Assembly: GCA_964023285.1 (NCBI GenBank)
Contig: CAXIEN010000102.1
Span: 2,935,528 to 2,999,527, forward strand
DNA: 64,000 nt
Source of the DNA: Larinioides sclopetarius
Taxonomy: Eukaryota
Direction: 5' to 3'
Shown: in pieces, positions 1-57,140 of the stretch
Numbering within the stretch: position 1 is the first letter of the stretch
How the letters are laid out: each line of letters starts with the position of its first letter
The notes under the pieces: generated by a model
What the model saw: the letters and a program-made list of their open reading frames with translations, nothing else
Databases searched by the model: none
Told to the model about the DNA's origin: nothing
Translations under genes and position numbers: made by a program

Positions 1-819
1 AATAATATTTAAAATAAAATATTTCTTTATTTCTATTCAATTATTTAATTCCTTTCTATACTTATTTAGGGAAGAAATCTTCACAAAATTTGCTAATAAG
101 TCATAAAACTTTTTTAAAAATACAGAAAATTTTAATACACGAAGAAAAGTAACTGAAAATTAAAATAAACGAAAAAATGTTAAATTTAGTCAAACCTGAT
201 AGGAATTTCATTTTATTATTAATAATCCCAAAATTTGTCATATAAAATATACTTTGAGCGGTAACCACAACTACATTTAACCGTCTCAAGCCCATTTAAA
301 TGTAAAGGAATATTTTTAATATAATATAAGCTAGCTACTCTAACCAATTTTACTCATTACTGCCCTTACCACCTCGCTTCGTCGAGGCTCTAAGCCTCTA
401 CTTTATTCAGATATAATACTGCACGAAGATCAGTGGAACAGACCATAAAATCATAGTATAATTCATACTCTTTGTAGACTACAGATTCCTTTAAAATAAT
501 AAAATCATTCAATAAACCTCATCTAGTTGTAATGTTTGCACAATTTTCTCCCGATTTTTGGAGTGAAAGTTTTCAAACCCATAAACAGGAATGGAGTCAG
601 AGTTTGCCCAACGGGAGGTCTCGACCAGCCGTACGGGAGATGAGCGAACTGAAACTGATCTCAAATTTTCGCCAAATTATTTACTGTCAACTACAATTGA
701 ATATCCTGCACAAAAATTTTCCCCGACAGGGAAGCAGATAATTCTTGACGGTGGTCCCTGCCTCCAGCCCCCGTCCTTACTCTGGCGCCAACTATGTCCA
801 TAAATAAAAATAAATTTAA

Positions 820-1049
820 ATAAACTATTATGATTCCGCCATCGAAAAGCTTTCTTCTATATAATTATATCAGTGAGATGCATCAGCCTGTACATATAAC
901 GCTTATTTTTATTTAAACGTAAACCATTTTAATAAACAGCATCGCATTTTTTTCTTATATTTTAAGCAGTATTGAAGCTATGCTTTATTATAGAAACAAA
1001 GAAATGCTTATAACATGCATGCAAATTGAATCGAAGTAACCTCATATAG

Positions 1050-1081
<32 letters not shown>

Positions 1082-1565
1082 GTATTAAATTTTATGCAAC
1101 ATCGAAACTGAGAAATACTAATCACAAATATTGCGAAATTTCGCAAGATTTATGACAAAAACGGAATAGCAGCACCGCCTGTTGAGCGATTTGAACCAGA
1201 CTCCAATCAGCATTAACTTATGTTAGGGTTAAACTAAATAAAAATTTTCATGAAATTCTTCCCATTAGTTTTTCTTCTAGAGCGGCCACAAAATTTCGCA
1301 AAAATTGTGAAAAAACAAACAAGCAGATAGCAGCGCCGCCTTTCAGACGATCTGCACCAAAATCTAATCAGTGTTAATTTTTGTTAACACGCTACTATAT
1401 ATAAAAATGTATGCAATTCTGTCCAGTACTTTTTGCTCTAGCGTGGCTACAAAATTTGTGTCACACACACCCCAAAACGTATAAAAAACCATTAGAAAAG
1501 GCAGTCGAAAATTTTCACGATTCCAACACTTTCTTCTTATATACACATAGAAGGAAGTAAAAGGG
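820..1565 (+). repeat. Dispersed repeat, copy 1, with an internal ~160-bp minisatellite of 2 units (about 1140..1465).
   Basis: Collinear similarity to 8610..9725, covering the flanks and the units containing (G)GAATAGCAGCGCCACCTGT. Confidence 0.7.
1057..1079. repeat. (TA)n microsatellite.
   Basis: Uninterrupted TA dinucleotide run. Confidence 0.9.
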
Positions 1566-3087
1566 AAACAGAATCGCTTCCAATTGATTTTAAATTGAAT
1601 ATTAACGAGAAAAAAAATTGTGTGTTTTTTAGCAAAATTATCTGCTATTAATATTATTATTATGTAGAAGTCTTAACAAAATTGCCTGGAATTAAAATTC
1701 AATTAGAATTAAATGCAACAGAACAACATGTGAATTTAAAAAATATACATTAATTTAAACTTAAGAAGATAGAGCGGAACATTCTGATACGTTGGTTATT
1801 TGAAAAGAATAAAAAAAAAAATTGCCGAAATCAGTTCGTTTTAGAGCTCAGGTACACGGTACTGTTTTGAAAATAAATATCCGTTACTACTGTTAATATA
1901 TATTCAGCTTATATTTAAATCTCTCTCCAAAATTGAATGTCAGACGACCACGGATAACATATCTAGATATATTAGCTTTAATTTGTAATAAGTATCACAT
2001 TTCGTCAGATGCTTATTTCTGGCGAACTTTCCATATTTTTCAAAAATAGAAAACGCATAGTGAGAAAGAGTTTTTTCGATTTGATCCTTGACAAATAGAT
2101 GTCACACACTTTCTATGAAATAAAAATTATCGAAATCGATTGAGGCCGGCGACTCGGGAAAATTTTTACCAAATTATAAAACCTTATATCAATTCGCCCT
2201 CCTCACGATTTTTGGAATACTTTTTTCAATTGAAAGGTTATGACGTCTATATGTCGGCAAAGATCGGTGTCCACTCAACTTTCGCCAGTTTCGAATGAAA
2301 TCGGAATAAACATTTATAAAACATATGTCGGAAGAGTTTTTTTTTTCATATCGTTCGAAAATGGGAGGTTGATGGGCGTAAGTTGACCTTTGGCAATATA
2401 TCTAGATGTCATAAGCTTTCAATTAAAAGAAAAAAAAAACGAAATCGGACGCTGGTTGAGACTCATTTAAGGTTTTATGTCCGAATTATTTCAAGGATAT
2501 AGATACCATATGAATATCAGATCTTAAAATGAATTTATTTCAGGAATGAGATTGTCGCAATATTCTCAAAAATTTAGTACCAGAAATCAAAGTCTAGAAA
2601 GTTTATTAAAATATTCCAAAGACAAATTAATAATTCACTTTTAATCAGAAGCAACCTTATGCCTTGTGGGGCCCAATTGGCAATTATTTTTAGTTTATTA
2701 CTTTTTTAATCATCAAAAGATTTAGAGCAAAGAAAAAATCTCAGCACGCGCGATTGCCTCCTTAACATTCTCATTTACTAACAGAAATCTTCGCATTTGG
2801 AGCTTTGTACTACAATGAAAAGAAAATCGAGTTTGCATTTTGGATGTCTTACTTCGGGCCATCTGGTATCAAAATTTATTACATATCTATAAATTTGATA
2901 AATAGGCAATATACAAAATTTTTAACATATTTGTAATTTCGATGAATAGACAATATACAAAACATGTGAAATATTAGAGAGTATACAAAATTTCAACGAT
3001 ATAGCTTGTTGGGTTTTGAGTTGTAGTGTACCGTTCTATACCCCCAAAACGACAGAAAGTCATCTCTTTAATGGACATCTCCTAACA

Positions 3088-3104
3088 CACACACACACAC
3101 ACAT
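3088..3104. repeat. (CA)n microsatellite.
   Basis: acacacacacacacac. Confidence 0.85.
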
Positions 3105-6100
3105 TTGATACAAATCCACAAATCTGAGAATATAATTAAATATTGAATTTAATTCTTTCTTAATTATTGTGTTCACATGGAAGGGCTAGGCAGATAGACT
3201 TCCTATTGACGGATTTCACATCTAAAATCTTAAAGAAATCTGCAATTTTAGTAGTATTATAACTAGATGCTAAATTTCATTCTTCTATCTCCTGAGTTAT
3301 GATGTTTACAAATTCATGGAAAAATTTAATAAAAAAGTGTTTCTATGTTATTTTATTTATTTTTTTATTCAGGGAAACTTAAGAGAGGGAATTTTATCAA
3401 ACTCTCGAATTTTCTCGTAATTACGATATTTTCTCTTTCCAAACGATAAAACCTCCGTTGAATTTTAATTATGAAATATAATAAAATTTTTAAATTTTAA
3501 TTTAAAGTGCTGAAATTGGATAAATTCTGCTAAGAATACTAAATTCACTGACTTTCTTGGAGAGACTTAAAAGAAAAAAGGAACATAATTACAAAAAAGT
3601 TTCGCCTGCGTGATTATTTCTATGCAATACAATACCTATTTTTTCAGTTGCATTAATATACACATTTAGAAAGCGATTATATCAAAAGGATTATTCATTA
3701 AAAAATGCTTGGTAATATTTTTTTTTATTTCTAGTGTACTTCTTGGAATAAAAAAGTTCCAAAGGCGGAACATAATCTTTCAACTATGTTCCGTCATCTA
3801 TTCCTTAAAATAGAACGTCATCCGACGTTATCTTAATATTTATGCGTTCAGAGACATTTCATTCTCACTAACAAAAATCGTCGAAATTTCAGTTGAAGAT
3901 CTTATATCAATTATTATATGTAAGAGGGTATATATGCTTCTCGAAGATATAAAATTTGATGTACGGATTTCGCATTTATGCAAATCAGAAACTGAGTTCA
4001 TAAAAAAGCAGCAGAAATATATTTATTTTTTAAGTAATTTTTGAATAGCAAATAGAAAATGTACTATTATGTGATAATTGGCAACTTCATAACTACAAGT
4101 CGGTATAGTTAAAATAAATTAATTATGTCTAAACTCAGTTCAAAATTAACATAATATGTGAGTAAATTTCGATGATGACAATTAATTCATTTTCATTTTA
4201 GAATATTTAAAAAATTGAGTATTGAATGCCATGCAACTTAGAAATCTAGAAAAGGCACGTTTTTCTTTCCAGTATAAAGAGTCGTTTAAATATAAATTAC
4301 CGGCCAGAAATAAATATAAATGAGTTAAATTATGACTGTAGAATTTTAAAACTCCATAATTTTTATATAAAACTTATGCATATTATTTAAAATACAAGTA
4401 GAGTAAACATCAATGCTTGCTAATTAAAATGGAAAACAATGTCCTGACTGTACAGTGGAGTGGAAGTTTGGAGAATGGTGTCCAACTTTAATATACAAAA
4501 GTATAGCTTTAATATACAATTTTTCCAACTTTTAATATACAAGTACAAATAAATGCTGCTTAAAAATTGGAAATTTATTTAATATAAAACAACAGTATAA
4601 AAAATAGTAGTCCTCGGCTAAGTTTGAAACTACATCATTGACGTTCTTTTATCTAGAACTTTCGATTATTTTTGTGATAAATTCTGGAACTATTAACTGA
4701 ATCTCAAGTAGAATTTTAAATAAGCTCGGTTAAGAAGCTTTCCATATCATAGATTTCTGCTTTGTGTGTGTTTTATAAAAATAAACTTCAATTAATACAT
4801 AGAGAGAGAAGGAGTAAATGTGTGTGTGTAGTGAAATGTTTATAAATATACATAATATAAAAAAATTATAATTACTAATATTAATGTAACTAATCGTTCT
4901 TTTTCTTGTATCGGATGTATATTTGCACAGAGAAGAATGTGTCCGTTTCTGTTATGTTTATTTGAACGCATAATATTCTCAGTAGCTTATTTCCCCCCTT
5001 CAAGATAGAGTTAATCTAATTTCCAGGACAAGTTACGCAATTCTATTATTGTGTTGCAAAACATTTATTTCCTTTTCTTTTAAATATAGTACCGCGCGTA
5101 CCCAAGAAAAATCCCCACTTTCTAAATAATAAATAGCGCGTTTTTATTTTTTAATATTTCGTCACAACTTTGAAGAAGAGATGTGATTATTGGTTTCTGC
5201 AAAGAAAAATTATGTAAATAGCTATAAATGCTAGAATAACTCCCAATTAAATAGTTTTGCATACATTATATTTAATAAAATCATCATATAACTTATTTAA
5301 AATTAAACCAATAAATTTATTATTGATGAGAATTACCAAGTGTAAAGAGAAATGAGATAGACTTATGTTCTTTGTATCATGTACGAGTGCTGTTGATTGT
5401 AACCGCCCTACCAAGCAAGGAACTGCTAAAAAAGAATTGCATTAAAAGTTAATTAAAAAAACTAATACTGTTTCAACTAAGAATTAAAAAGAAAATGAAA
5501 GAGCACTTTTACGCGTTTTCTCAAGTAAGTAAAAAACTTTTTTTTATTGTCCGAGGGCTAGGTTTCCTATGGCCCTTTTTAATTTTTCTTGAACATCTGA
5601 AAAACTCTTCTCTTTTCACACTACATGTTTATAAAAAATAAATAGTCAACAATTCCCTACAGTTTCCAGCTTTCATTTTTCTTCAAGTTTTTAACATTTT
5701 TGGAGATAATGTTTCTTAACTAGTTTTTCGTTTTCAGTAATTTACAACCCCCGAACCGCTAAAACCGGAGTGATATTACTTTAAAAAAAACTTTTTACAA
5801 TATTCATTCAAGCAATTTCAATGGTTGAAACATTATTTTTGATTAACCTTTAATTGTTTCTAACAATTCTCGGACGTCCTGAATTTTTGCTGATTAAACG
5901 TCGTTTGGGACCCTATGTCCTACGGTAATTTTCATACTCTTGATACCTACTATCACTTCTTAAAGTTTTGACCATCTTTTATGAAACACCCTGTATATAA
6001 ATTACTGGAGTATTGTCGTGGCTTTAAAGCTTTGTCGTCAATAGTAAATACTGATGTGTGAGCGTTGATTATCCGAATTTCAACTATTTTAAATTACAAT

Positions 6101-14982: not shown

Positions 14983-16045
14983 CTAAGATATATATATCAT
15001 AAATGTAAGAAATCAAAAGATAATTACACATTTATGAAAAAAATATGGGGAGGGGAAGAAAGCACAAAAGAAGTCATATAAAAGACTTCACACAGAAGTC
15101 ATGACATCAAAGAAGAGATTACAATGATTATTGTAGCAACAGATAAAAATAAAACAATAGGTGAGAAAAAATAAACATTGCCTTCCAAACCTTTTATTGG
15201 AATTAAATCAACTCATCTTTCACATAAACATTTAAATATTTTTTTAAAATTTGAAGACATTCAAACAAAAACTTTTGAAAATATCTGAAAGCAAGTAAAT
15301 TTTTATTTATTGCTTTAAAAAAATGAATACAAACATTTAAAAAATTATTCATGAACCTTTTTTTATTTAAATACGAAATGAAGTTTTTTTTTAGTTTTAT
15401 GCTAAATTAAATAATTTGAAAGCATTTTTCAGGGTCAGAATTTAACCAAATACATTTTAGCACCTATCACATTTATAGCCTATAAGAATCTTCATATCTA
15501 AAAAAAATGTTAGATTAAGACGATAGTATCTAGAATGAAAAATATATTTAACATCTAAAATAGACATTAGGGAGAGGAAAGGGGAGGTGGGAAGCCATCA
15601 AACAACATTTAAAATAGAAAAATGAAAAGAATACATTCATCAGAGAAAAGAACCAAATTCAAAATTTTTGAAAAAATAAAAGCTAAAAAAATTATTCCAG
15701 GATCTTGTGCAAGAATCAGGACAGTTATTAAAAAAATGTGCTTTTCTCCCATATTTTTAAAACCAAAGTTGGATTTAATTTTTGAACAAGAATATTTAGA
15801 CATTTGGTTATTTTGACCCGATCGGGAAAAAAAGAAGAGTGGGTGAGAATGTGTGCTAGAAAAAGTTATAAAAGACTAAAAGCATTTTTTGAAAAAAAAG
15901 CAATTAATCTTTTTTAATCTATATTTTCATGAATATAAAAATTTTAAACATATTTTTTCCCCAACTCCTTATAAATAAATAACAAATAATAATAAAAATG
16001 AAGTTTGGAATATGAAGTTATAAAGAAATAAAAGAGAAAACATAC

Positions 16046-16289
16046 AGCTTCAATCTTCATAGCTTCTGCCTTTGATCTTGCTTGCTCAACAGCAGCTTCA
16101 GCTTCAATTCTTTGAGCCTCTGCTCGACTCAAAGCTTCTGCTTTGGCTTGACCACAGTTCTCTATTGACATGCTGCTCACTTTTAGCTCAAGTAGACTCT
16201 TTCTTTCTTTCTCAGCTTCAACTTCATCAGATATTTTCTGACGCTCCAGTCGCCCACGAGCTTCCTGCTCCCTTCGCTCAGCCTCATGC
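16046..16289 (-). CDS. MVP: MVP coding exon 12 ((R)[81 protein letters not shown]). Cap-helix coiled coil.
   Basis: Acceptor tgtacag, donor GTATGT. Aligns to [81 protein letters not shown]. Confidence 0.85.
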
Positions 16290-16330
16290 CTGTACACATA
16301 AATAAAATTTATCGTTTTTTGATCACTAAA

Positions 16331-40678: not shown

Positions 40679-40799
40679 CTGGGCCTTCAAATAACCATTC
40701 ATCTCCAGCAGTTCTCTTGATATCCCCATCTTCAAAGTCTCGAATTGCAGTCAATCTTAAAGCACTATTAGCTGACACAACAGTCAATGGAGTTACTGG
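40679..40799 (-). CDS. MVP: MVP coding exon 3 ([40 protein letters not shown]+G).
   Basis: Acceptor gaatttcag, donor GTAGAA. Aligns to [37 protein letters not shown]. Confidence 0.8.
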
Positions 40800-41299
40800 C
40801 TGAAATTCAATTGGAATGATATTTTTAGAAAATGTTCTAAATAAACAGAAACCCATCATTCAAATAATTTTTATATTCAATTCCTAATTTCATATTTGAA
40901 TATGAATTCATATGCAAACTGCAATTGCATGAATGATATTTTAAACTGCACAGTTAGCATAAAATAAGACATCAGCAAACTGAAGGATAATGGTAAAAAT
41001 AAATTCTTAAATATTACTTTGTGAAAAAGAAATTTATTTGACATAAATTAACATATCTGCTACTTAATTAATACCAAAATACAGAATTCAAGGACAAACT
41101 TATGAAAAACTTATAAATGTTCCATGTGATTTGTTTAATAATAAATCTTTCTTGAACATGAATGTGTCGAGATGGTTCCTAAGAACTATTTCCATTTTCT
41201 GCGGATGATAAATCATTTTCAAATAGGAAGGGTCAAATAAAAGGGAAAGTTGAACTTTCATCAATAGGACTAATCAGGATCAAACAAACCTTCCTCCTC

Positions 41300-41597
41300 T
41301 ATTATATTCTTTCTATAATTCTGGCAACGCAATACATTGATTACTATTTCTTTTTAACTTATGGCAAAGTAACAAAAATATAAATAGAATTCTACTTTCC
41401 TTTCAACGTTGCAATAGGTAATGTTCTTGTTTAGTTGCTTAATATATCAAATCACGTATCAAGGGAAATGAATATTATTTGTTTGTAAATATGTAAATAC
41501 TTTAAAATGCGTGGAATAATAAATGTATTATTATAAGTTCCGGCATCACATTTTTCGTATCGCATCGATACGCGCCTGCCACCTCAGAAACATAACA
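41300..41597 (+). repeat. 5' LTR of the retrotransposon.
   Basis: ~98% identical to 45906..46196 (about 4 substitutions, an 8-bp and a 1-bp indel). Ends ...AACATAACA. Confidence 0.8.
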
Positions 41598-41601
41598 GTT
41601 T

Positions 41602-41612
41602 TGGCGACAAGG
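41602..41612 (+). other. Putative tRNA primer-binding site (TGGCGACAAGG), 4 nt downstream of the 5' LTR.
   Basis: Starts with TGG, complementary to a tRNA 3' CCA end, in the canonical position. The tRNA species was not identified. Confidence 0.4.
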
Positions 41613-41659
41613 TAAAGTTCTTTTTCTATCAATTTTTCATCGAATATTGTTTTGATATT

Positions 41660-42529
41660 TTGTATTTCATGATGGATGCCGAACAATTTAAAATATTGCT
41701 GCAGGCAATGAATCAAAATAAACAACAGCTGTTAGAGCGATTATTATCAAAAGATAAAACAGAATCGTTTGCGTCTAAAGAAACTTCTGTTATTAACATA
41801 GCTCATATTCCACCATTTGAAAATTTTGATCCTAAGAAAGAGAAATTTAAATATTATAAGCAACGTTTCGAAAATTACTTATTGATGAAAGATGTTTTTC
41901 AAGATAAAGATAAATGTGCACATATATTACTTAATTCTATTGGTGCATCGAATTACAACATCTTGGCGTCTTTAATTGCGCCAAAACCGCCAAACAAATT
42001 GCCGTATGATGATCTCATGAAAGTTCTAGAAAATCATTTGGCGTCAAAGCGCAGCTGTTTAGTTTCCCAGCATTACTTTTTGTCGACTTATCAAAAAGAA
42101 GATAGTTCAATTTCTGATTATGTGGCTGATTTGCAATGTTATATTGCGGATTGTGAATTTTCAGTTACTTGTGAATGTAGCAAAAATGTATCGGTTGCTG
42201 ATATTTTTCTAAGAGCGCAATTTATTCGAGGTATCAAAGACGGTTGGATTAAAGAACAACTCTTACAATCTGAATTAACTGATTTCAATGCACTTGTTGA
42301 TAAAGCTATTGCGCTTGAAACTTCAAAAATAGATGGTCATGAATTATCAAAATCGACTACAACCACCATCGATGGTATAAACAAAGTTTCTAAGCGTAGT
42401 CGCAATCGCCAATCTAATGATATAAAAACCTCTTTCAGAAATCGAAATACAAATCAGAGAGACTTCGCAACAAATTACCGAAGGAAAAGTAAGAAACTCT
42501 CTCGATTTCGAGAAACTTGGAATAAATAA
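41660..42529 (+). CDS. Retrotransposon gag ORF (289 aa), intact, ending at TAA.
   Basis: First long ORF after the 5' LTR and primer-binding site. The following pol frame is +1 relative to gag and is open across the gag stop. Confidence 0.7.
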   Translation: MYFMMDAEQFKILLQAMNQNKQQLLERLLSKDKTESFASKETSVINIAHIPPFENFDPKKEKFKYYKQRFENYLLMKDVFQDKDKCAHILLNSIGASNYNILASLIAPKPPNKLPYDDLMKVLENHLASKRSCLVSQHYFLSTYQKEDSSISDYVADLQCYIADCEFSVTCECSKNVSVADIFLRAQFIRGIKDGWIKEQLLQSELTDFNALVDKAIALETSKIDGHELSKSTTTTIDGINKVSKRSRNRQSNDIKTSFRNRNTNQRDFATNYRRKSKKLSRFRETWNK

Positions 42530-42530
42530 T

Positions 42531-43127
42531 TTGTGCCTGTGTTGCGGACACAATTCTCATTTATCAAGAGACTGTCAATCAAATCCCAACAACTTGAAAT
42601 GTAAAGTTTGCAAATCTACAGATTATGTACAAAAGGTTTGCATCAAAACATTATTAAAAGCTCATAGATCAAACAGTCTTACACAAGAAACAAATTATTT
42701 GAAAACTTATCAAGACATTAGTGTAAATACGATCATTGATAACCGTAATTCAGGATCTTCAGTAGATTCAACGAAATATTTTATTTATGTCAAAATAGAA
42801 AATTGTTTTCAAAAGTTTGAGGTTGACACAGGTGCAGCTTATACGCTCATACCGAATGATCAGTTTCAAAAATTAGGTATAAAAAGACAGCTTGAACCAA
42901 TGAGAATCGCATTTCGATCCTATACTGAAAATGTATTTGTACCACTAGGAAAAGTGCAAGTTAAAGTGGAACACAAGGGTCAAATATCAAATGAAGATTT
43001 GTATGTAGTGCCTGATGGATTTGAACCTTTATTAGGAAGAATCTGGATTAGACATTTAAAAATCAATCTGAATGAAATAGATCAAAACATTGAGGGCAAA
43101 ATTAAATTGGAAGTATTTTCGATCTAA
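42531..43127 (+). pseudogene. pol part 1: CCHC zinc knuckle and aspartic protease, ending at an in-frame TAA (43125..43127). It is in the same frame as the RT ORF.
   Basis: CLCCGHNSHLSRDC knuckle. FEVDTGAAYTLIP protease active site. LLGRIWI. Confidence 0.75.
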
Positions 43128-43184
43128 AACATTTCTGATATTGAAAGGCATTTTCCACAGGTATTCGAACAAAAAGTAGGTTGT

Positions 43185-43990
43185 GTGCCTAATTTTACTA
43201 TCAATTTAAAACTACGTAACGGAGCTAAACCTAGTTACACTCCATCTCGGAATGTACCCTATGCTTTAAGGGAACAAGTTAACAAGGAACTGGATTCTCT
43301 CAAAGCAGCTGGAATTATTTCCAAGTCAGTTACTAGTGATTGGGGATCACCTTTAGTTGTGATTCCAAAAGGAGACGGAACTCTTCGACTTTGCGTAGAT
43401 TACAAAGTTGGAGTTAATGATCTACTTATGAACGTCAACTATCCAATAAAGAAAATCGATGAAGTTTTGAACAATCTTAGAGATTCAAAGTATTTCTGCA
43501 AGCTGGATTTATTTAAGGCATATCTTAATTTACAGACCGATGAAGAGAGTAGTATTATCCAAACGATTTCAACACATCGAGGAACTTATAAAATGAATAG
43601 GCTGAGTTTCGGCATTAAAATGGCTCCGGCTGAATTTAATAGATTAATTGATCAAATTCTAAATGGTTTGCCAAACACTATAGCTTATTTCGATGATATT
43701 GTGGTTCATGGTGAAACTAAAAATCAGTGTGCTAAGAACCTCTTTGCTTGTCTCGAAAGACTACGCGAATATGATTTGCATTTGAACATCAAGAAATGCA
43801 CATTTTTTCAAACAAAGATTGAATATCTAGGTCATGTAATTGAAAACAACAAAATATCAAGATCACCCTCAAAAGTGGAAGCTATTGTACAATTGCCCCA
43901 ACCAAGAAATGTCAAAGAACTTCGACATTTTTTAGGTATGGTTGCTTACTACTCGAGATTCATACCAGATGTTTCTACGATTACCTTTAT
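43185..43990 (+). pseudogene. pol part 2: reverse transcriptase.
   Basis: LRLCVDYKVGVN, YFCKLDLFKAYLNLQ, IAYFDDIVVHG, LGHVIE. A frameshift (~1 bp) near 43985 separates it from the RNase H frame. Confidence 0.8.
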
Positions 43991-44794
43991 CCTCTACGTA
44001 AACTCCTTCGTAAAAATCAAAGGTGTTGTTGGAATCGAGAATGCGAACGGACTTTTCTTCAGCTCAAGGAAGAAATATCCAGTGACAGAGTCCTAGCACC
44101 TTTTAATCCAGAATTACCTGTTTCGTTAGCAACAGATGCAAGCACAGTAGGAGTTTCAGCTGTATTATCACACACAATAAACTATGTCGAAAAGCCAATT
44201 GCTTTCGCTTTCCGTTCATTGACAGAGGTGGAAAGAAATTACTCTCAACTTGATCGAGAAGCCTTAGCTATTATTTTTGGAGTCTCCCATTTCATCGATT
44301 ATATTTATGGTCGACATTTTGTTCTCGTCACCGATAACCAGCCCTTATCCAGAATACTACATCCTAAAACTGGCCTTCCAAAAATGACATCCGCTCGACT
44401 TTTGAGATATGCTTCTTTTCTAGCAGGATTTGATTACACAATCAAATTTAAAAGGGGCCTAGAAAACCAAAATGTCGATTGCTTATCAAGAGCTCCTTTC
44501 CTCAAAAATTGCACATCTGCAGATACATCTATTAATGAAGAAGTCCATCAAATATGTGCATCGACAGAAATTTTGACTGCAGATGCCATTATACAGGAAA
44601 TAGAAAAAGACCCGGAATTGGCAAAAATTAAGCAAGAACTGTTATCAAATTCAATTGACAGTGATTACTTTTTACACTGTGGCATTTTGTTTAAAAACAA
44701 CCGCATCGTGATACCCCAAACACTTCAGCCAATGGTTCTGAAAGAATTACATTCAACCCATATTGGAATAACTAAAATGAAACAGTTAGCATGA
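43991..44794 (+). pseudogene. pol part 3: RT-RNase H connection, RNase H and the start of the integrase zinc finger, ending at an in-frame TGA (44792..44794).
   Basis: PLRKLLRKNQRCCWNRECERTFLQLKEEISSDRVLAPFNPELPVSLATDASTVGVSAVLSH..PIAFAFRSLTEVERNYSQLDREALAIIFG, VTDNQPL, LHSTHIG. Confidence 0.8.
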
Positions 44795-44836
44795 CCCTAT
44801 TGTATATGGAAGAATATCGACAAAGATATAGAAACT

Positions 44837-45680
44837 TTGGTTAAATCTTGTAAAGATTGCTCTTCAGTCAAACACAGTCCTGCCAAGGCACCCATTCATC
44901 ACTGGGATTTACCAATTAACAACTGGGATAGAATTCATATCGATTATGCAGGAACCTTTCAGGGTTTTCACTACCTAATTGTGGTGGACGCAAAATCTCG
45001 TTGGGTAGAAATTAAAGTGTTGCAACGATCACCTGATTCTGAGATTACCATGAAATTACTTGATGACATTTTTTGCCACTCATGGATATCCTTTATTTAT
45101 GGTCTCTGATAATGCATCAATTTTCACTAGTGAGGAATTCAAGCATTTCTGTCGTATGAATGGAATTAGACAAAAATTTATAGCACCTGGCCATCCAGCA
45201 ACAAACGGACTAGCTGAGCGGAACGTCCAGACCTTGAAAGATAGATTAAAACTTATGTCTTCAGAAAACGTTCCAATCAATTTAAAAGTTCAAAGAATCC
45301 TCTTTCAATATCGAGCTACTCCGTTAGCAAATGGCAAGTCACCAGCAGAAATGTATTTAAACCACAAGATTCGCATCAGATTGGATGCAATGTTTCCATT
45401 CTGCGAACGGAAATCTGAACAACTGATCAAACCTAGTACACGTATAATTAAAGTGGGGGAGAGAGTAAGAACAAAGTTTTTCATCAACAATAAACCTAAT
45501 TGGAAACTTGGAGTTGTTACTCAAAAGCTTGGTCATCTGCATTACATCGTAAAGTTAGATGATGGAAGAGAAATAAAGCGTCACATCAATCAAATGCAAA
45601 AAATCAGGAGTCCAAAACGAAGAAGTTATATCAAATGCCACAACTTCAGATTTGGAACCTTTCCTGAATCAAGATTGTGA
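44837..45680 (+). pseudogene. pol part 4: integrase (CX2C of the HHCC finger, DDE catalytic core).
   Basis: CKDCSSVKH, WDRIHIDYAGTF..YLIVVDAKSRW, GYPLFMVSDNASIFTSEEF, GHPATNGLAERNVQTLKDRL. A single-base frameshift in the T6 run at 45069..45074 (ORFs 44837..45109 and 45060..45680), and another near the C-terminus (~45650..45770). Confidence 0.8.
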
Positions 45681-45905
45681 TCCTGGTCATTACCAATTCA
45701 TCAAGCCTTCTACTACTCAAAGGAACAGATTAACTACAGATCGAGATTTAGGAGATTCTGATCAACAGCAGAGGTCCTCACCACCTATCCGGAGGGGTCT
45801 ACAAGAGTTAGACGTCCACCAGCATATCTGCAAGATTATGATCGATCCTAAAATAACTTTTTTTCTTTTCCTTTTTAGCATCCAAATAATCAAGTGGGGG
45901 AGAAT

Positions 45906-46196
45906 TATTATATTCTTTCTTTAATTCTGGCAACGCAATACATTGATTACTATTTCTTTTTAACTTATGGCAAAGTAACAAAAATATAAATAGAATTCTA
46001 CTTTCCTTTCAACGTTGCAATAGGTAATGTTCTTGTTTAGTTGCTTAATATATCAAATCACGTATCAAGGGAAATGAATATTATTTGTTTGTAAATACTT
46101 TAAAATGCGTGGAATAATAAATGTATTAATATAAGTTCCGGCATCACATTTTTTCGTATCGCATCGATACTCGCCTGCCACCTCAGAAACACAACA
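45906..46196 (+). repeat. 3' LTR of the retrotransposon.
   Basis: Direct repeat of 41300..41597, preceded by the polypurine tract at 45892..45904. Confidence 0.8.
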
Positions 46197-46928
46197 CAGT
46201 GTGTACACCTTCTCTCACTCCACAGAGATTCTATTTTTAGAAAAAGACAAGTATGTACTTGTATATCTGATCTATTAAGTCTCTAAACGAAGGTTTTTTT
46301 AAGGCATACTTTTGCCACTTGAAGCATTATTACATGCTGGAGTAAGCAGTTTAATTTATTTTGTTTCAAATATTTTTTATACAGAAGTGCGAAGTTTTAC
46401 AAAGATGATACCTTTATCAATGATTTTTTGAGTTTTTCCTCAAATCTCAGCAAATTTGTCAAATTCGCCCAGCAATATTCTTAAACTTTTAAAAAAACCG
46501 TTGTGTTTTCTTTTTCATATGACCTTTAATAAACTTTTTATTTAAACATTTTTATAAAGCTGAATTTGTTAAACGAGATAAATTACTTTATTTAAGAATT
46601 ACTCTTGGATTAGTCCATTTTTAAACTTTAAATTTAATGAACATTCTTGGAAAAAGTTTTGGTATAATTTAGGTTAGTCCTAGAAAGCATGATTAATTTC
46701 TGCCACAGGTTGATCACATTGCCAATTGCTAAATTTGCATACATCATGCACTAGTCTATCAAGAAAGAATAGTAATTTATATAATAATGCAAAAAGAGCT
46801 GTTTAACTCTATTTAAAGAAATCTATTGATCAATACACATTTAACCTTTCACTTCCTATAACATAGGATTACATAATTTTAATCATAATAAATGCAAATC
46901 TTCAAAAATATATAACTACTTTACATAC

Positions 46929-47124
46929 TGTATCAATAATTTCTCCAGGATATAATGGAAATGGATCCTGCTCTAATCTCACTTCTAAATCTGCATGCTT
47001 CAATTTGATCTGACCAACTTTATCATACATCAGAGCATTTTCTGCATTTCTAACGACAGGATTTCGAATAGTACAGTAATGACATGGAGGAATAATTATC
47101 ATATCTTCTGGCCCAATCAGAACC
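46929..47124 (-). CDS. MVP: MVP coding exon 2 ((R)[65 protein letters not shown]).
   Basis: Acceptor ttttag, donor GTATGT. Phase is consistent with exon 1 (CG+G=Arg). Aligns to human [64 protein letters not shown]. Confidence 0.85.
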
Positions 47125-47326: not shown

Positions 47327-47481
47327 CGTTCATTTTCTTGGCGAATATAAGTCTTGGGTCCAATTTCAACTCGAGTAATGTTTGTTGTTTGGTCCAAAAC
47401 ATGCATATACTTGTAAGGAGCAATGCGAAAAATGCTCCGCTCTCCCTTGGAGTTGTTTTCCGATTCTTTATGAGGAGCCAT
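47327..47481 (-). CDS. MVP: MVP coding exon 1. ATG at 47481..47479, encoding [51 protein letters not shown] plus 2 nt.
   Basis: Matches the MVP N-terminus ([34 protein letters not shown]). Donor is GTATTT at 47326. A ttttttgcag sits 2 nt upstream of the ATG, suggesting a spliced 5'UTR. Confidence 0.75.
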
Positions 47482-50129
47482 ACCTGCAAAAAAGATTTGA
47501 CAAAACTTAGTTAACAAACTTCAAACAGAAACAGAAAAATTAGAATGAATAAATTTCTACATGTAAATTCTTTTTTACACATAGAAACTATTCTTTAAAA
47601 CACAATGAATACTTTATTCTTCAGATTAATACTAAATCAATATATGCTAAAAAAAAGAAGAAACTTCTAATGATGAACAATATTTTTAATTTTATTTCTC
47701 TTCAAATATTCTTTTCAGTCCTATAGAAATAAGTTGAGTGGGATAAGAAGTTTCATTTGGAAGATGGATATTGGTTTCATGGGGAACGTCTATATAGGAG
47801 AAAAAAAAAACAGAAAGGGACACATACTAAATTATTTGGATCCCAGCCAGGCTAGAAGCTATCGGTAGATATTTTTAAATTTTACTAAAAGTGTATTTGT
47901 AATTTTAATTAGGAGGCAAGTGTAAAATGCTCACTGGTATCCTGTGAATTCTGTTTTCTCTTCTGTGAAGATCTTTCAGGAGACATAATGCTTCTGAAAA
48001 ATAAAAATAAATAATAAAAAAAAAATTGTACACCATAGAATGTGCGTCCCCCCCTTATCTATTTATCTTACCAGACAGAGCTTTTGATTGAAGAGTTTAA
48101 GGCATTTTTTAGTTGGTAATCAGCCATATAAATCTAGTCCAAGACTAATAAACAGTAAAGCCGAGTAACTCTTCACACAAATCAGGGTAAATTCAAACAA
48201 CTAGACTTAGACAATCAGAGAGGCGTCCATATTTTAAAGTTACAAAAAGGCTATTTTGTGATGAAACTCCAAATTATGAATCATGTTCAAACAGCAAGAA
48301 TAACATCCAAGGCAATATAACAATTTTCTATCTTGCCACATCAGCAGATGAAATTAGAATTTTTAGATCCAAAATTCTTATTTTCTTCTATATACGTAAA
48401 ACCGAAGTACTGGAATCGCAAACATTCCGATTTCTGGTTTTCAATAGACTAACATATTTTGGGAGGTCTTGAACAGTATTCACTATTTTTGAAAAATGCT
48501 TGCCTGAATGTGACAAATTTTGTAATCACAGTTGAGCAAAAACTAAGAAAACATAATTTCTTTTAAAATTTTTACTTGGTTGCTCTCCAACACAAACTGG
48601 TGCTGATTAGACTTAAGTGCATATTGCTTAACAGGTTAATTTTATTTCATTTTATATAAAATTAATAACTAACAAAATTTCCTCTTATATAAAATTTTAC
48701 AGGTGCTCCTATTAAATTTTCTGTAAAATTCAGCGATTACACCGAAGCAAAATATAATCAAAAGAATTTTATAAGAAAATTTATATTTAATCACACCCCA
48801 ACATAAACAGACGTTGCTTAGATTGTGATGCATAGACATCAACAGATGGCACTGCTATTCAATTTTATTCACGAAATTTCGTGACTGTTCTAGAGAAAAT
48901 GCAAAATGAAGAAATTTCATATTTAATCACATTCTATTATAAATTGTTGAGTAGATTTTGATGTTTATCACACAAAATTCAATTTTGTTGCAAATTTTGT
49001 GACAACACTAGATTTGAACTTAAAAAGGCACCAAGACTCAAAGGGCATTAAGTTTCATAAAAATACCATTCCCCGAAATAATTCCTTAAAATACCCTTCC
49101 TTGAAAAAGGAATCTTACGTTTTACAGAAATAGATCAGAAAAATTACCGTTCATTTTTTGGAAATCGACCGGAAAAAGCATCGCAAGTTTTACAGAAAAC
49201 ACACTGTACGTTTTAGGCGAATAAATCGGAAAAATTTCGAACAACGTATATCTTTTAAAAAATAAACATAGAATAGATGCGAAATAATGATAAAACATGA
49301 TACTTAACTGCTTTTAATCTCAGAAGAAACATCGTTTTAAAATATATCTTAAATAAGATAGATGGAAATAGATTGGAAACTTTGGAAAATCACCAAGTAA
49401 ATATATAACATGTTTTTAAAAAATGGAGTACAATACAACGAATTGTCAGACGATTTCTACATAATGTTTGGAAAGTCTGAAACATTTATCTTTCCTAAGA
49501 AGCATATTTTTAATTCCTTGCATCCCAGGCTGTTTTTTTTTATTCCTTTTCATGAATTCGTTTTCTTCTGTCACTAGAAGGCATTTTTTTCTATGGTATT
49601 TCAGTAAGGCTTGGAAATACAGTAGGAATATTCGTTAAGATTGGAATAATTTTGCCGAAAGCCGATCAAGATATGTGGCAAGGTGTGCTTCAAGTAAAGA
49701 CAATAGGAGGCTTGAAATTACGTTGCTTGACTTGGCAATTTATAACCGGAAAAATTGAAATTTGAAGATTTCTTGTATTTTCCTACTGATGAGAAACGAG
49801 GTTTCCCTCCCATCTCCATACGAAAATTATTTTATTTTCTTAAAAAAATATATTACATTAATTAAAAAAAAGAGTCGACACAAGTTTTCTAAATCAGTAA
49901 AAATAGCGGAAAAATAGGAATCCTGGGTAAAAAGTCTTTTGAAAACCTCGGAAGGGACAAATGGTCCCCCCTCTCCATAGATCCCTGCCTGGGACCATGC
50001 TAATTGCGAATACAACTTCTGTACCCTGATTCACAGAAGTAATTATTTGCCTTAGCTGGACCTCCATGATAAGATTCTTTTATCTCCAAGGTTCCCCTTC
50101 TATACGGCCCCTATTTAGTTTTATGGCTG

Positions 50130-55249: not shown

Positions 55250-57140
55250 ACTTAAATCTTGGAACAGAGGTGGGCAATTCACGCAGTTCAAATCCACAAT
55301 ATTTGAATGTGATGATCAGAATATTTTGGTGTGAACGCTGCTTTAATTTACTAAACGAATATCTTTTAACCCCACAGAATCTTTTAAACTTATTTTGTCG
55401 ATTGCAGGTAACTACCGGCAACACCACAATCTTACCGGCGTGTGATGCAACAATGCATTAATGCAACGCCCGCCAGCAATCTTCAGTTTTTGTTTTGTTA
55501 TCATGACGTAACCATATGAACAGAATTCGGGAACTTGTGCTACAAACGCGTTCCTTAATTTTTTCAACCATATTTTTAGGGGGGGGGGAGAAAGGAATAT
55601 AATAAAATTATCTAAGCAACCAAAATTAAAATATTAACTATGAGAACTAAAGTATTATTCAATGCTGATCTAATAAAAAAATATCTAAACGCATCGCTAC
55701 AATTAGCGCTTGTTCAATCTTTATTCGCAAAATAAGTACTGAAACGTTCTAAAAGCGGTCCCAGAGCGTTCTAACCCGGCTGACAAATTCTTGCTTCTCA
55801 TTCTACTCCATCCCATTTATTTCTTTTGGAACAAAGCAGTGCCAGAACGCCGTTCCAGTGCGTATTGCATTCCATCTCCACTACATCTATACCGACCCTC
55901 ACTTAAGACTGTAGACGAGTTTCAATTTTGTTTATTTTGGATTTAGACCTACCTGTTCTTCTATGTTTTTCTTAGCTTGTTTCACTTAAAATGGCAAAAA
56001 AATAATTGCCTAATGGGAAGATTGTAATTCTCTATATCGTTTGGTTAATAATTTAATATCAAACTAGCTTTAAATGTCGGTAAAAAAAGAGTGATAACGA
56101 ACAGTTATGGCAGCTTCATCATAAAAATAGTGTTCTTATTTTAAGTAAGCATTCAGAACTACAATAGCAGGCACACCAAAATTAACATTATTAAACGATA
56201 CTGCTAGTGTAGATCTAGGCCTAAAACTAGTTTCACCTTTGGACCGACTTAAAGAACAAATTAACAGCCTTGCTAGGCATATACCTCAATTTTGAATTCT
56301 CCTCCATCCACCTTTACAGAAAAAAGAAAAATTAAGTTCTATTTAAATACCCCTCCTTTTCAATCGAAATCCTATTCTAACTCTCTCATCTACTGCCTTT
56401 TCCATGAATATAAATGTCGTTTTTAGAAATTCAAGGTAATTATCGCAACAGATGCTTCCATTATCTATCACATCAAAAAATTTCAATAACATTATTACTT
56501 AGGAAAGACGCGATTTGTACAGCCATCAAGGACCTACTATATAAACATCATCATTGTGTTTTACTTAGTGATAGTCTTTCATTTCTCAAGGCATTACAGT
56601 GTGCAAACATTCATTCCAAGAGTATATAATCCAAATAGTTATTGATAATCAATCTATCAAATTTGTTGGGACATCTGGTCACACAGGTATATTAGTGAAA
56701 ACGAATATGTAGATCATTTGACAGGCACAGCACCAAAAATCTTAGATATCAAAACCCTGAAAGTAATCAAAACAGAAGCTGAAATGGACTGGATGAATTC
56801 CAAATACTACCATGACTTCACTGACAATAGAGAAATTTCACCATTTAATCAAAAAATGTTCTTTTTCACTCTTTTGAAGAAAAACTTACCCCACAAAGCC
56901 AAACTGTTTAGATATTACCTCATATCCTCACTCTTATGCAATATTTACAGAGTTGTAGAAACCAGAGGATATTTACCTTTCCAATGTCAATGTTTCGAGC
57001 CTCAAAGAAATAGCTTTCATACAGCAATGGGCTGCTTGCCACTTTCTTTCACGTGGATTTTCAATTTTTCATTTCATTCTAAAAAGAAAATTTTTTCCAT
57101 TCACAAGTTTTTAGCCTTTTTGCATGATAATTATTAATGC
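55250..57140 (+). pseudogene. Non-LTR (LINE-like) retrotransposon 3' remnant: RNase H-like and C-terminal CCHC zinc-finger region, frame-disrupted.
   Basis: ORF 56414..56629 (AICTAIKDLLYKHHHCVLLSDSLSFLKALQ) and the following FVGTSGHTGILVKTNM resemble LINE RNase H (SDS..AL.. / W.PGH.GI.GNE). ORF 56718..57137 ends with CQCFEPQRNSFHTAMGCLPLSF, a CX1CX7HX4C finger typical of some non-LTR ORF2 C-termini. The 55250 start of the remnant is a guess. Confidence 0.45.

Follow-up and report, generated by a model that had tools for sequence, protein, structure and literature searches.

Mag-lineage retrotransposons of Culex mosquitoes are 4.1–5.3 kb long, with long terminal repeats (LTRs) of 140–300 bp, one or two open reading frames (ORFs), a Ser or Leu primer binding site (PBS) and a 5-bp target-site duplication; in the published table for this lineage Ser is the commonest primer, and some of the families have a single ORF (PMC3286476).

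In Saccharomyces Ty3, Gag3-Pol3 is produced by programmed +1 frameshifting, and the nucleocapsid knuckle lies inside Gag3. Both systems are relevant to an element of the spider Larinioides sclopetarius that we analysed in a 64 000-nt stretch of DNA (contig CAXIEN010000102.1, positions 2,935,528–2,999,527; hereafter the window, to which coordinates refer unless a relative is named). The element lies in an intron of the gene for major vault protein (MVP), in the orientation opposite to that of the gene. A first-pass annotation had proposed a recently inserted LTR retrotransposon of nearly intact coding capacity, whose pol would be reached by Ty3-style +1 frameshifting. Our analysis indicates that this is very probably a non-autonomous, decaying Ty3/gypsy copy of Mag-like structure, in which the frame change between gag and pol is a mutation.

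Anatomy and classification of the element

A direct-repeat search over 39.5–48.5 kb, in which the ends of the pair were set by gapped alignment, returned one pair only (BLASTN E = 3e-138). These repeats are the LTRs of a retrotransposon that occupies positions 41300–46196 of the + strand, i.e. 4897 bp or 80% of the 6129-bp intron; the first-pass description of a single antisense LTR element filling most of the intron was exact, including the intron coordinates (40800–46928). In their alignment, 286 of 290 bases are identical (98.6%, in agreement with the ~98% given earlier). The differences between them are four substitutions, one 8-bp tandem duplication and one 1-bp indel (an extra T in a T-run). 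Both contain TATAAA and AATAAA. A PBS beside the 5′ LTR and a polypurine tract (PPT) beside the 3′ LTR complete the structure of the MVP-intron copy:

41300–41597, + strand: 5′ LTR, 298 bp, starting TATTAT and ending ATAACA
41379, + strand: TATAAA in the 5′ LTR
41484–41491, + strand: 8-bp tandem duplication TGTAAATA in the 5′ LTR
41518, + strand: AATAAA in the 5′ LTR, 139 bp downstream of TATAAA
41602–41612, + strand: PBS-like sequence TGGCGACAAGG, 4 nt past the 5′ LTR
45892–45904, + strand: polypurine tract AAGTGGGGGAGAA, 1 nt ahead of the 3′ LTR
45906–46196, + strand: 3′ LTR, 291 bp

Between the LTRs, Pfam domains were detected on successive ORF fragments: a weak PNMA-like gag match, aspartic protease, RVT_1, RT_RNaseH, RT_RNaseH_2 and rve. 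The fragments were then joined at the inferred lesions, giving a repaired polyprotein of 1336 amino acids, and the scan was repeated. After the repair RT_RNaseH_2 scored 98.5 bits instead of 31.8 and rve 46.7 bits instead of 25, and a match to Integrase_H2C2 (47.7 bits) emerged across an in-frame TGA; these higher scores support the inferred joins. The coding regions, with the lesions that end them, are as follows (RT, reverse transcriptase):

41669–42497, + strand: gag, capsid-like (weak PNMA match), from ATG to frameshift 1; the frame stays open on to TAA at 42527
42534–42575 and 42600–42641, + strand: two CCHC zinc knuckles (nucleocapsid)
42642–43124, + strand: aspartic protease (DTGA), ending at the in-frame TAA 43125–43127
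43128–43985, + strand: RT (RVT_1, YFDD), followed by frameshift 2
43991–44791, + strand: RNase H (RT_RNaseH, RT_RNaseH_2) and linker, ending at TGA 44792–44794
44795–45851, + strand: integrase (H2C2 zinc finger, rve core) and C-terminal tail, broken by frameshifts 3, 4 and 5

The original gag-pol stop is separated from the PPT by only ~40 nt, which leaves no room for env. An errantivirus with env was considered and rejected because of this short gap after integrase.

The pol order of protease, RT, RNase H and integrase with an H2C2 finger (Asp protease, RVT_1, RT_RNaseH/RT_RNaseH_2, Integrase_H2C2, rve) is that expected of Ty3/gypsy elements. A search of the PDB placed Ty3 first (Gag-Pol, 7q5b, E = 6.5e-82; RT, 4ol8, E = 4e-60); caulimovirus, the next best (4e-34), foamy virus and other retroviral enzymes all matched far less well. 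On the basis of the Pfam domains and the best solved relatives, the element is assigned to Ty3/gypsy (Metaviridae), which settles the choice between Gypsy and BEL/Pao that the first-pass annotation had left to be made. An element of the BEL/Pao superfamily could also present the domain order seen here and a single gag-pol ORF, since the two superfamilies have both in common. However, no Peptidase_A17 or BEL-type Pfam domain was detected at E ≤ 0.01, RT_RNaseH, RT_RNaseH_2 and Integrase_H2C2 being found instead; the top PDB match is Ty3 Gag-Pol, and among the more distant homologs are proteins named Ty3-G Gag-Pol as well as chromodomain-bearing gypsy elements. We therefore give virtually no credence to a BEL/Pao origin.

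With Ty3 the element shares the superfamily and the domain order, and Ty3 is its best relative of solved structure (7q5b and 4ol8). Its organization resembles that of the Mag lineage (Bombyx Mag and mosquito Mag-like families, labelled 'K02A2.6-like' in the genomes of arthropods). The shared features are a length of ~4.9 kb, LTRs of ~0.3 kb, absence of env, a gag-pol that is ancestrally one ORF, a G-rich PPT and a PBS of the TGGCGAC... type, which looks tRNA-Ser-like. Unlike Mag elements, the window copy carries two stops and five frameshifts, its LTRs have TA and not TG at the 5′ end, and it lacks the 5-bp duplication.

Homologs were sought with the repaired 1336-aa polyprotein (E ≤ 1e-10). 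The search returned 93 proteins, mostly arthropod 'K02A2.6-like' proteins of ~1400 aa that cover 95–100% of the query in one protein, with identities of 45–57% across insects and 70–90% in spiders. The closest are an assembly-derived protein (P0001, 73%), a Larinioides sclopetarius model (P0004), and models from Araneus ventricosus and a pseudoscorpion. Identity to P0004 is 82% overall, 90% in gag and 76–81% in RT and integrase; for the Araneus ventricosus models P0036 and P0058 it is ~70–77%. These spider models are the closest sequences, but none is identical to the window copy, so that they may belong to another family; as gene models, they also leave out parts of the element. P0004 (984 aa) jumps from the second zinc knuckle into RT and is missing the protease and other segments, as if introns had been modelled around transposable element (TE) lesions. 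P0058, annotated as 'Acid-sensing ion channel 3', matches gag, protease and RT of the family at 66–77% identity in its C-terminal half (residues 483–1025), and the model is probably an ion channel/retrotransposon chimera, judging from this match. Among metagenome contigs the best relative of the RT is only 35% identical, and the viral contig collection contains none. None of eight ORF variants from the window copy has an exact match in a collection of 15 billion proteins.

The frame change between gag and pol

The first-pass annotation had correctly noted that gag ends at a TAA (42527) and that the zinc knuckles lie in the +1 frame. Gag is in frame 2; the +1 frame, which encodes the knuckles and the protease, is open from 42426, so that the two overlap over ~100 nt (42426–42526). 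From this arrangement Ty3-style programmed +1 frameshifting had been proposed.

The relatives do not bear this out. When the copy is aligned with seven full-length relatives, gag passes from its basic tail unbroken through (F/Y)(E/R)(K/E/Q)LGIxN(L/M)C into the first CCHC knuckle; the homologs conserve the junction motif DFEKLGINNLC, with no break in it. The Larinioides model P0004 reads straight through the site as KKPSLDFEKLGINNLC (junction in full NYRSKSKKPSLDFEKLGINNLC, KKPSLDFEK). At the same site the window has AAG AAA C followed by TCT CTC GAT TTC GAG; this gives KK and SLDFEK, with an orphan C between them at 42497. In two relatives, L002 (ORF 425–4738, with LTRs on both sides) and L003 (ORF 370–4806), the reading frame from gag to integrase is uninterrupted on the DNA itself. 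Thus gag and pol do not lie in different frames in the intact relatives. Since these have a single ORF, and since P0004 is continuous at the very point at which 2 nt are missing from the window copy, the frame change is attributed to mutation and not to recoding. The family of the MVP-intron element is accordingly one for which a single Gag-Pol polyprotein is predicted, as in the single-ORF Mag families of Culex (PMC3286476), and, unlike in Ty3, the frame change in this copy is a lesion within a continuous gag-pol ORF.

A nearly intact element that reaches pol by programmed +1 ribosomal frameshifting within 42426–42526 would indeed account for the Gag stop at TAA 42527 and for the ~100-nt overlap with the frame of the knuckles and protease. 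It would, however, leave Gag without its nucleocapsid knuckles. Moreover, in every full-length relative a single ORF continues past the site, the lone orphan C of the window copy corresponds to a Pro codon of the closest relative, and the copy contains four more unambiguous mutational frameshifts, indels being common in it. Taken together, these observations make programmed frameshifting extremely improbable here.

One further relative, L001 (73% identical), has a break of its own in gag, beside an A9 run: its N-terminal 81 aa form a separate ORF in another frame (281–526 versus 510–4505).

Damage, boundaries and age of the copy

The total damage to the coding region comprises two nonsense codons and five frameshifts:

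42497–42498, + strand: frameshift 1, a 2-nt deletion; orphan C where the Larinioides homolog P0004 has a Pro codon
43125–43127, + strand: nonsense codon TAA; AAA (Lys) in relative L001
43986–43988, + strand: frameshift 2, a 2-nt insertion in a T-run; the relatives read STIT-x-PLRKLL
44792–44794, + strand: nonsense codon TGA; Arg in the relatives
45069–45074, + strand: frameshift 3, +1 T in T6
45598–45603, + strand: frameshift 4, +1 A in A6
45794–45797, + strand: frameshift 5, −1 G in G4

Both stops are where the first-pass annotation had placed them, and each is a single substitution away from the Lys or Arg codon of the relatives. The frameshift reported earlier in a T6 run is a real frameshift site (45069–45074), for which an assembly error is possible (a sequencing error had been suggested). 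The earlier count of two to three frameshifts was too low: the last two had been missed, and with them the true C-terminus. Past frameshift 5 the conserved C-terminal motif RVRRPPAYLQDY can be read, followed by the original stop, TAA 45849–45851. In addition, the second zinc knuckle has a His to Tyr change (CKVCKSTDYVQKVC versus CxxCxxxGHVxKVC), and the linker between RNase H and integrase is six residues shorter than in the relatives.

The LTR boundaries of the window copy could be fixed by comparison with relatives, in which the LTR ends in ..ACA, the PBS is TGGCGACGAG and a single nucleotide separates the G-rich PPT from TGT... In L003 the PPT GGGGGGGAGAA is followed by C and the LTR start TGTTGTATC, and the LTR end GTAACA by AAT and the PBS TGGCGACGAGGTAAA. 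The corresponding order in L002 is PPT GGGGGGGAGA, G and LTR start TGTAG, then LTR end CACAACA, G and PBS TGGCGACGAG, while in L001 the LTR end CACAACA is followed by ATTAGAT and the PBS TGGCGACGAG. In the window copy both LTRs start with TATTATAT (41300–41307 and 45906–45913), with TA at the 5′ end and CA at the 3′ end. Compared with TGTTGTAT at the LTR start of L003 there are two G>A changes; because both are present in both LTRs, they were inherited from the parent and predate the insertion. The PBS has a third G>A change at its position 8 (41609), where the relatives have TGGCGACGAG(G). All three G>A differences from the relatives' TGTTGTAT and TGGCGACGAGG thus fall at functionally important positions, the LTR start and the PBS. 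TGGCGACGAGG would be complementary to the 3′ end of tRNA-Ser(GCU), and the putative assignment of the PBS to tRNA-Ser is based on this and on the Mag-lineage table for Culex (PMC3286476). A tRNA scan of the 64-kb window found no tRNA gene with which the PBS might be compared.

The refined LTR ends allowed target-site duplications to be sought, as the first-pass annotation had recommended. By eye and by shared k-mers, no 4–6-bp duplication was found to adjoin the LTRs, the flanks being TCCTC on the left and CAGTG on the right. The hexamer ACCTTC occurs at 41283–41288, 12 nt 5′ of the 5′ LTR, and again at 46207–46212, 11 nt 3′ of the 3′ LTR. This pair adjoins neither LTR and is therefore no canonical target-site duplication; it may be a chance match. 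The missing duplication could be due to recombination between two copies, to a small flanking deletion or to atypical integration, and it leaves the main conclusion unaffected.

The first two of these possibilities amount to a different history, in which the copy is a recombinant of two neighbouring family members or was rearranged after insertion through small deletions in its flanks. Such a history would explain why no 4–6-bp duplication is present at the LTR ends, and small indels are frequent in the window copy. On the other hand, searches of the 64-kb window with a 28-mer (3 mismatches allowed) and with BLASTN (word size 9) detected no further copy, solo LTR or internal fragment, and the similarity of the LTRs is as expected for a single insertion. 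Relative L002 is also without a clear duplication. We consider a recombinant or rearranged copy unlikely.

The main conclusion, a decaying Mag-like Ty3/gypsy copy with a mutated gag/pol junction, has several observations against it. Frameshifts 3, 4 and 5 are in homopolymers (T6, A6 and G4) and are possible assembly errors, in which case the copy may have suffered a little less damage. As a eukaryotic gene model, P0004 may contain introns that were modelled around its lesions; consequently, the case for a single ORF is carried mainly by the ORFs called directly on contigs. The placement with Mag is based on structural features. Finally, both LTRs begin with TA where the canonical TG is expected, and the LTR ends are not abutted by a 4–6-bp duplication. 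As regards the first of these points, assembly error cannot account for the two stops or for frameshifts 1 and 2, and the copy is therefore non-autonomous either way.

The LTRs are separated by a Kimura two-parameter distance of 0.0139, which would place the insertion ~0.4–2.5 Myr ago if neutral rates of 1.6e-8 to 2.8e-9 per site per year are assumed. If the internal 4.3 kb had diverged to the same extent as the LTRs, ~30 substitutions would be expected in it, together with several indels at the indel density of the LTRs; hence all the lesions could postdate the insertion of an intact element. The earlier claim of a recent insertion thus stands, the 98.6% identity of the LTRs marking a fairly young copy, whereas the claim of near-intact coding capacity does not, given two stops and five frameshifts. 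The copy is 'young' in relative terms, yet its reading frames predict that it is inactive and that its own Gag-Pol is no longer made.

The history that we favour for the decaying Ty3/gypsy copy would be as follows. The ancestor would have been an element of ~4.9 kb without env, bounded by LTRs of ~290 bp with a TATA box and a polyadenylation signal, and provided with a PBS of ~11 nt and a PPT. Its PBS looks complementary to the 3′ end of a tRNA-Ser. A single gag-pol ORF would have encoded a capsid-like Gag, two CCHC knuckles, aspartic protease, RT, RNase H and an H2C2/DDE integrase. This intact element would have integrated antisense into the MVP intron, where two nonsense codons, five frameshifting indels and the His to Tyr change in the second knuckle would have accumulated after insertion, with loss of its own Gag-Pol.

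The MVP gene and possible effects of the insertion

The flanking minus-strand ORFs read IIPPCHYCTIRNPV...DPFPLYPGEIIDT and PVTPLTVV..., and the reading frame is continuous across the splice sites of the intron:

40679–40799, − strand: MVP coding exon downstream of the intron, PVTPLTVV...
40800–46928, − strand: MVP intron, 6129 bp; GT at 46928/46927, AG at 40801/40800
46929–47124, − strand: MVP coding exon upstream of the intron, ...VLIGPEDMIIIPPCHYC...PLYPGEIIDT
47327–47481, − strand: MVP exon with the ATG; polypyrimidine tract and AG 3 nt upstream of the ATG

A query built from the exons matched, at 56–71% identity, proteins named major vault protein in which the Pfam Vault domains PF01505 and PF17794 are present. 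The protein collection searched contained no close MVP ortholog from the host, and the only spider match for MVP (P0122, Trichonephila clavipes, 71%) is labelled UNVERIFIED_CONTAM by NCBI. Ahead of the MVP start, positions 47479–47490 of the − strand read ttttttgcag, the acceptor, then GT ATG. This suggests that the MVP transcript probably has an extra 5′-UTR (untranslated region) exon and an intron upstream of the ATG. The name 'intron 2' used in the first-pass annotation holds when introns are counted from the exon with the ATG, and fails if the 5′-UTR intron suggested by the AG acceptor is counted. An ORF at 15944–16297 (− strand) encodes the cap-helix region of MVP, from which it follows that the gene, whose introns are long and AT-rich, spans >31 kb of the window. 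The sole window ORF of >110 aa that belongs neither to a TE nor to MVP is one of 139 aa at 56718–57137 (+ strand).

Intronic LTR elements are usually tolerated when they lie antisense to the gene. Gene-sense AATAAA occurs 1.0 times per kb in the element, 3.25 times per kb in the rest of the intron and 2.2 times per kb in the whole window; being rarer inside the element, it gives no hint of added polyadenylation sites. Most likely, the antisense element is simply spliced out with the intron. The 3′ LTR has a TATA box and is directed at the first coding exons of MVP across a distance of ~730 bp. It is nevertheless very improbable that read-through from this LTR would yield antisense RNA over MVP exons 1–2 and the promoter and so modulate the vault protein; we rate just as low the separate idea that the family tolerates TA...CA ends and integrates without a detectable duplication.

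There is no evidence here of a new mechanism, and the element is an ordinary TE copy. It ought to be masked as a Ty3/gypsy (Mag-like) LTR retrotransposon to prevent the annotation of its six ORF fragments as genes. For the host gene, it accounts for an MVP intron that is five times the length it would otherwise have (the non-TE remainder is 1232 bp). For the family, it serves as a caution that translational recoding should not be inferred from a single degenerate TE copy: intact relatives reveal the apparent frame change to be a 2-nt deletion.

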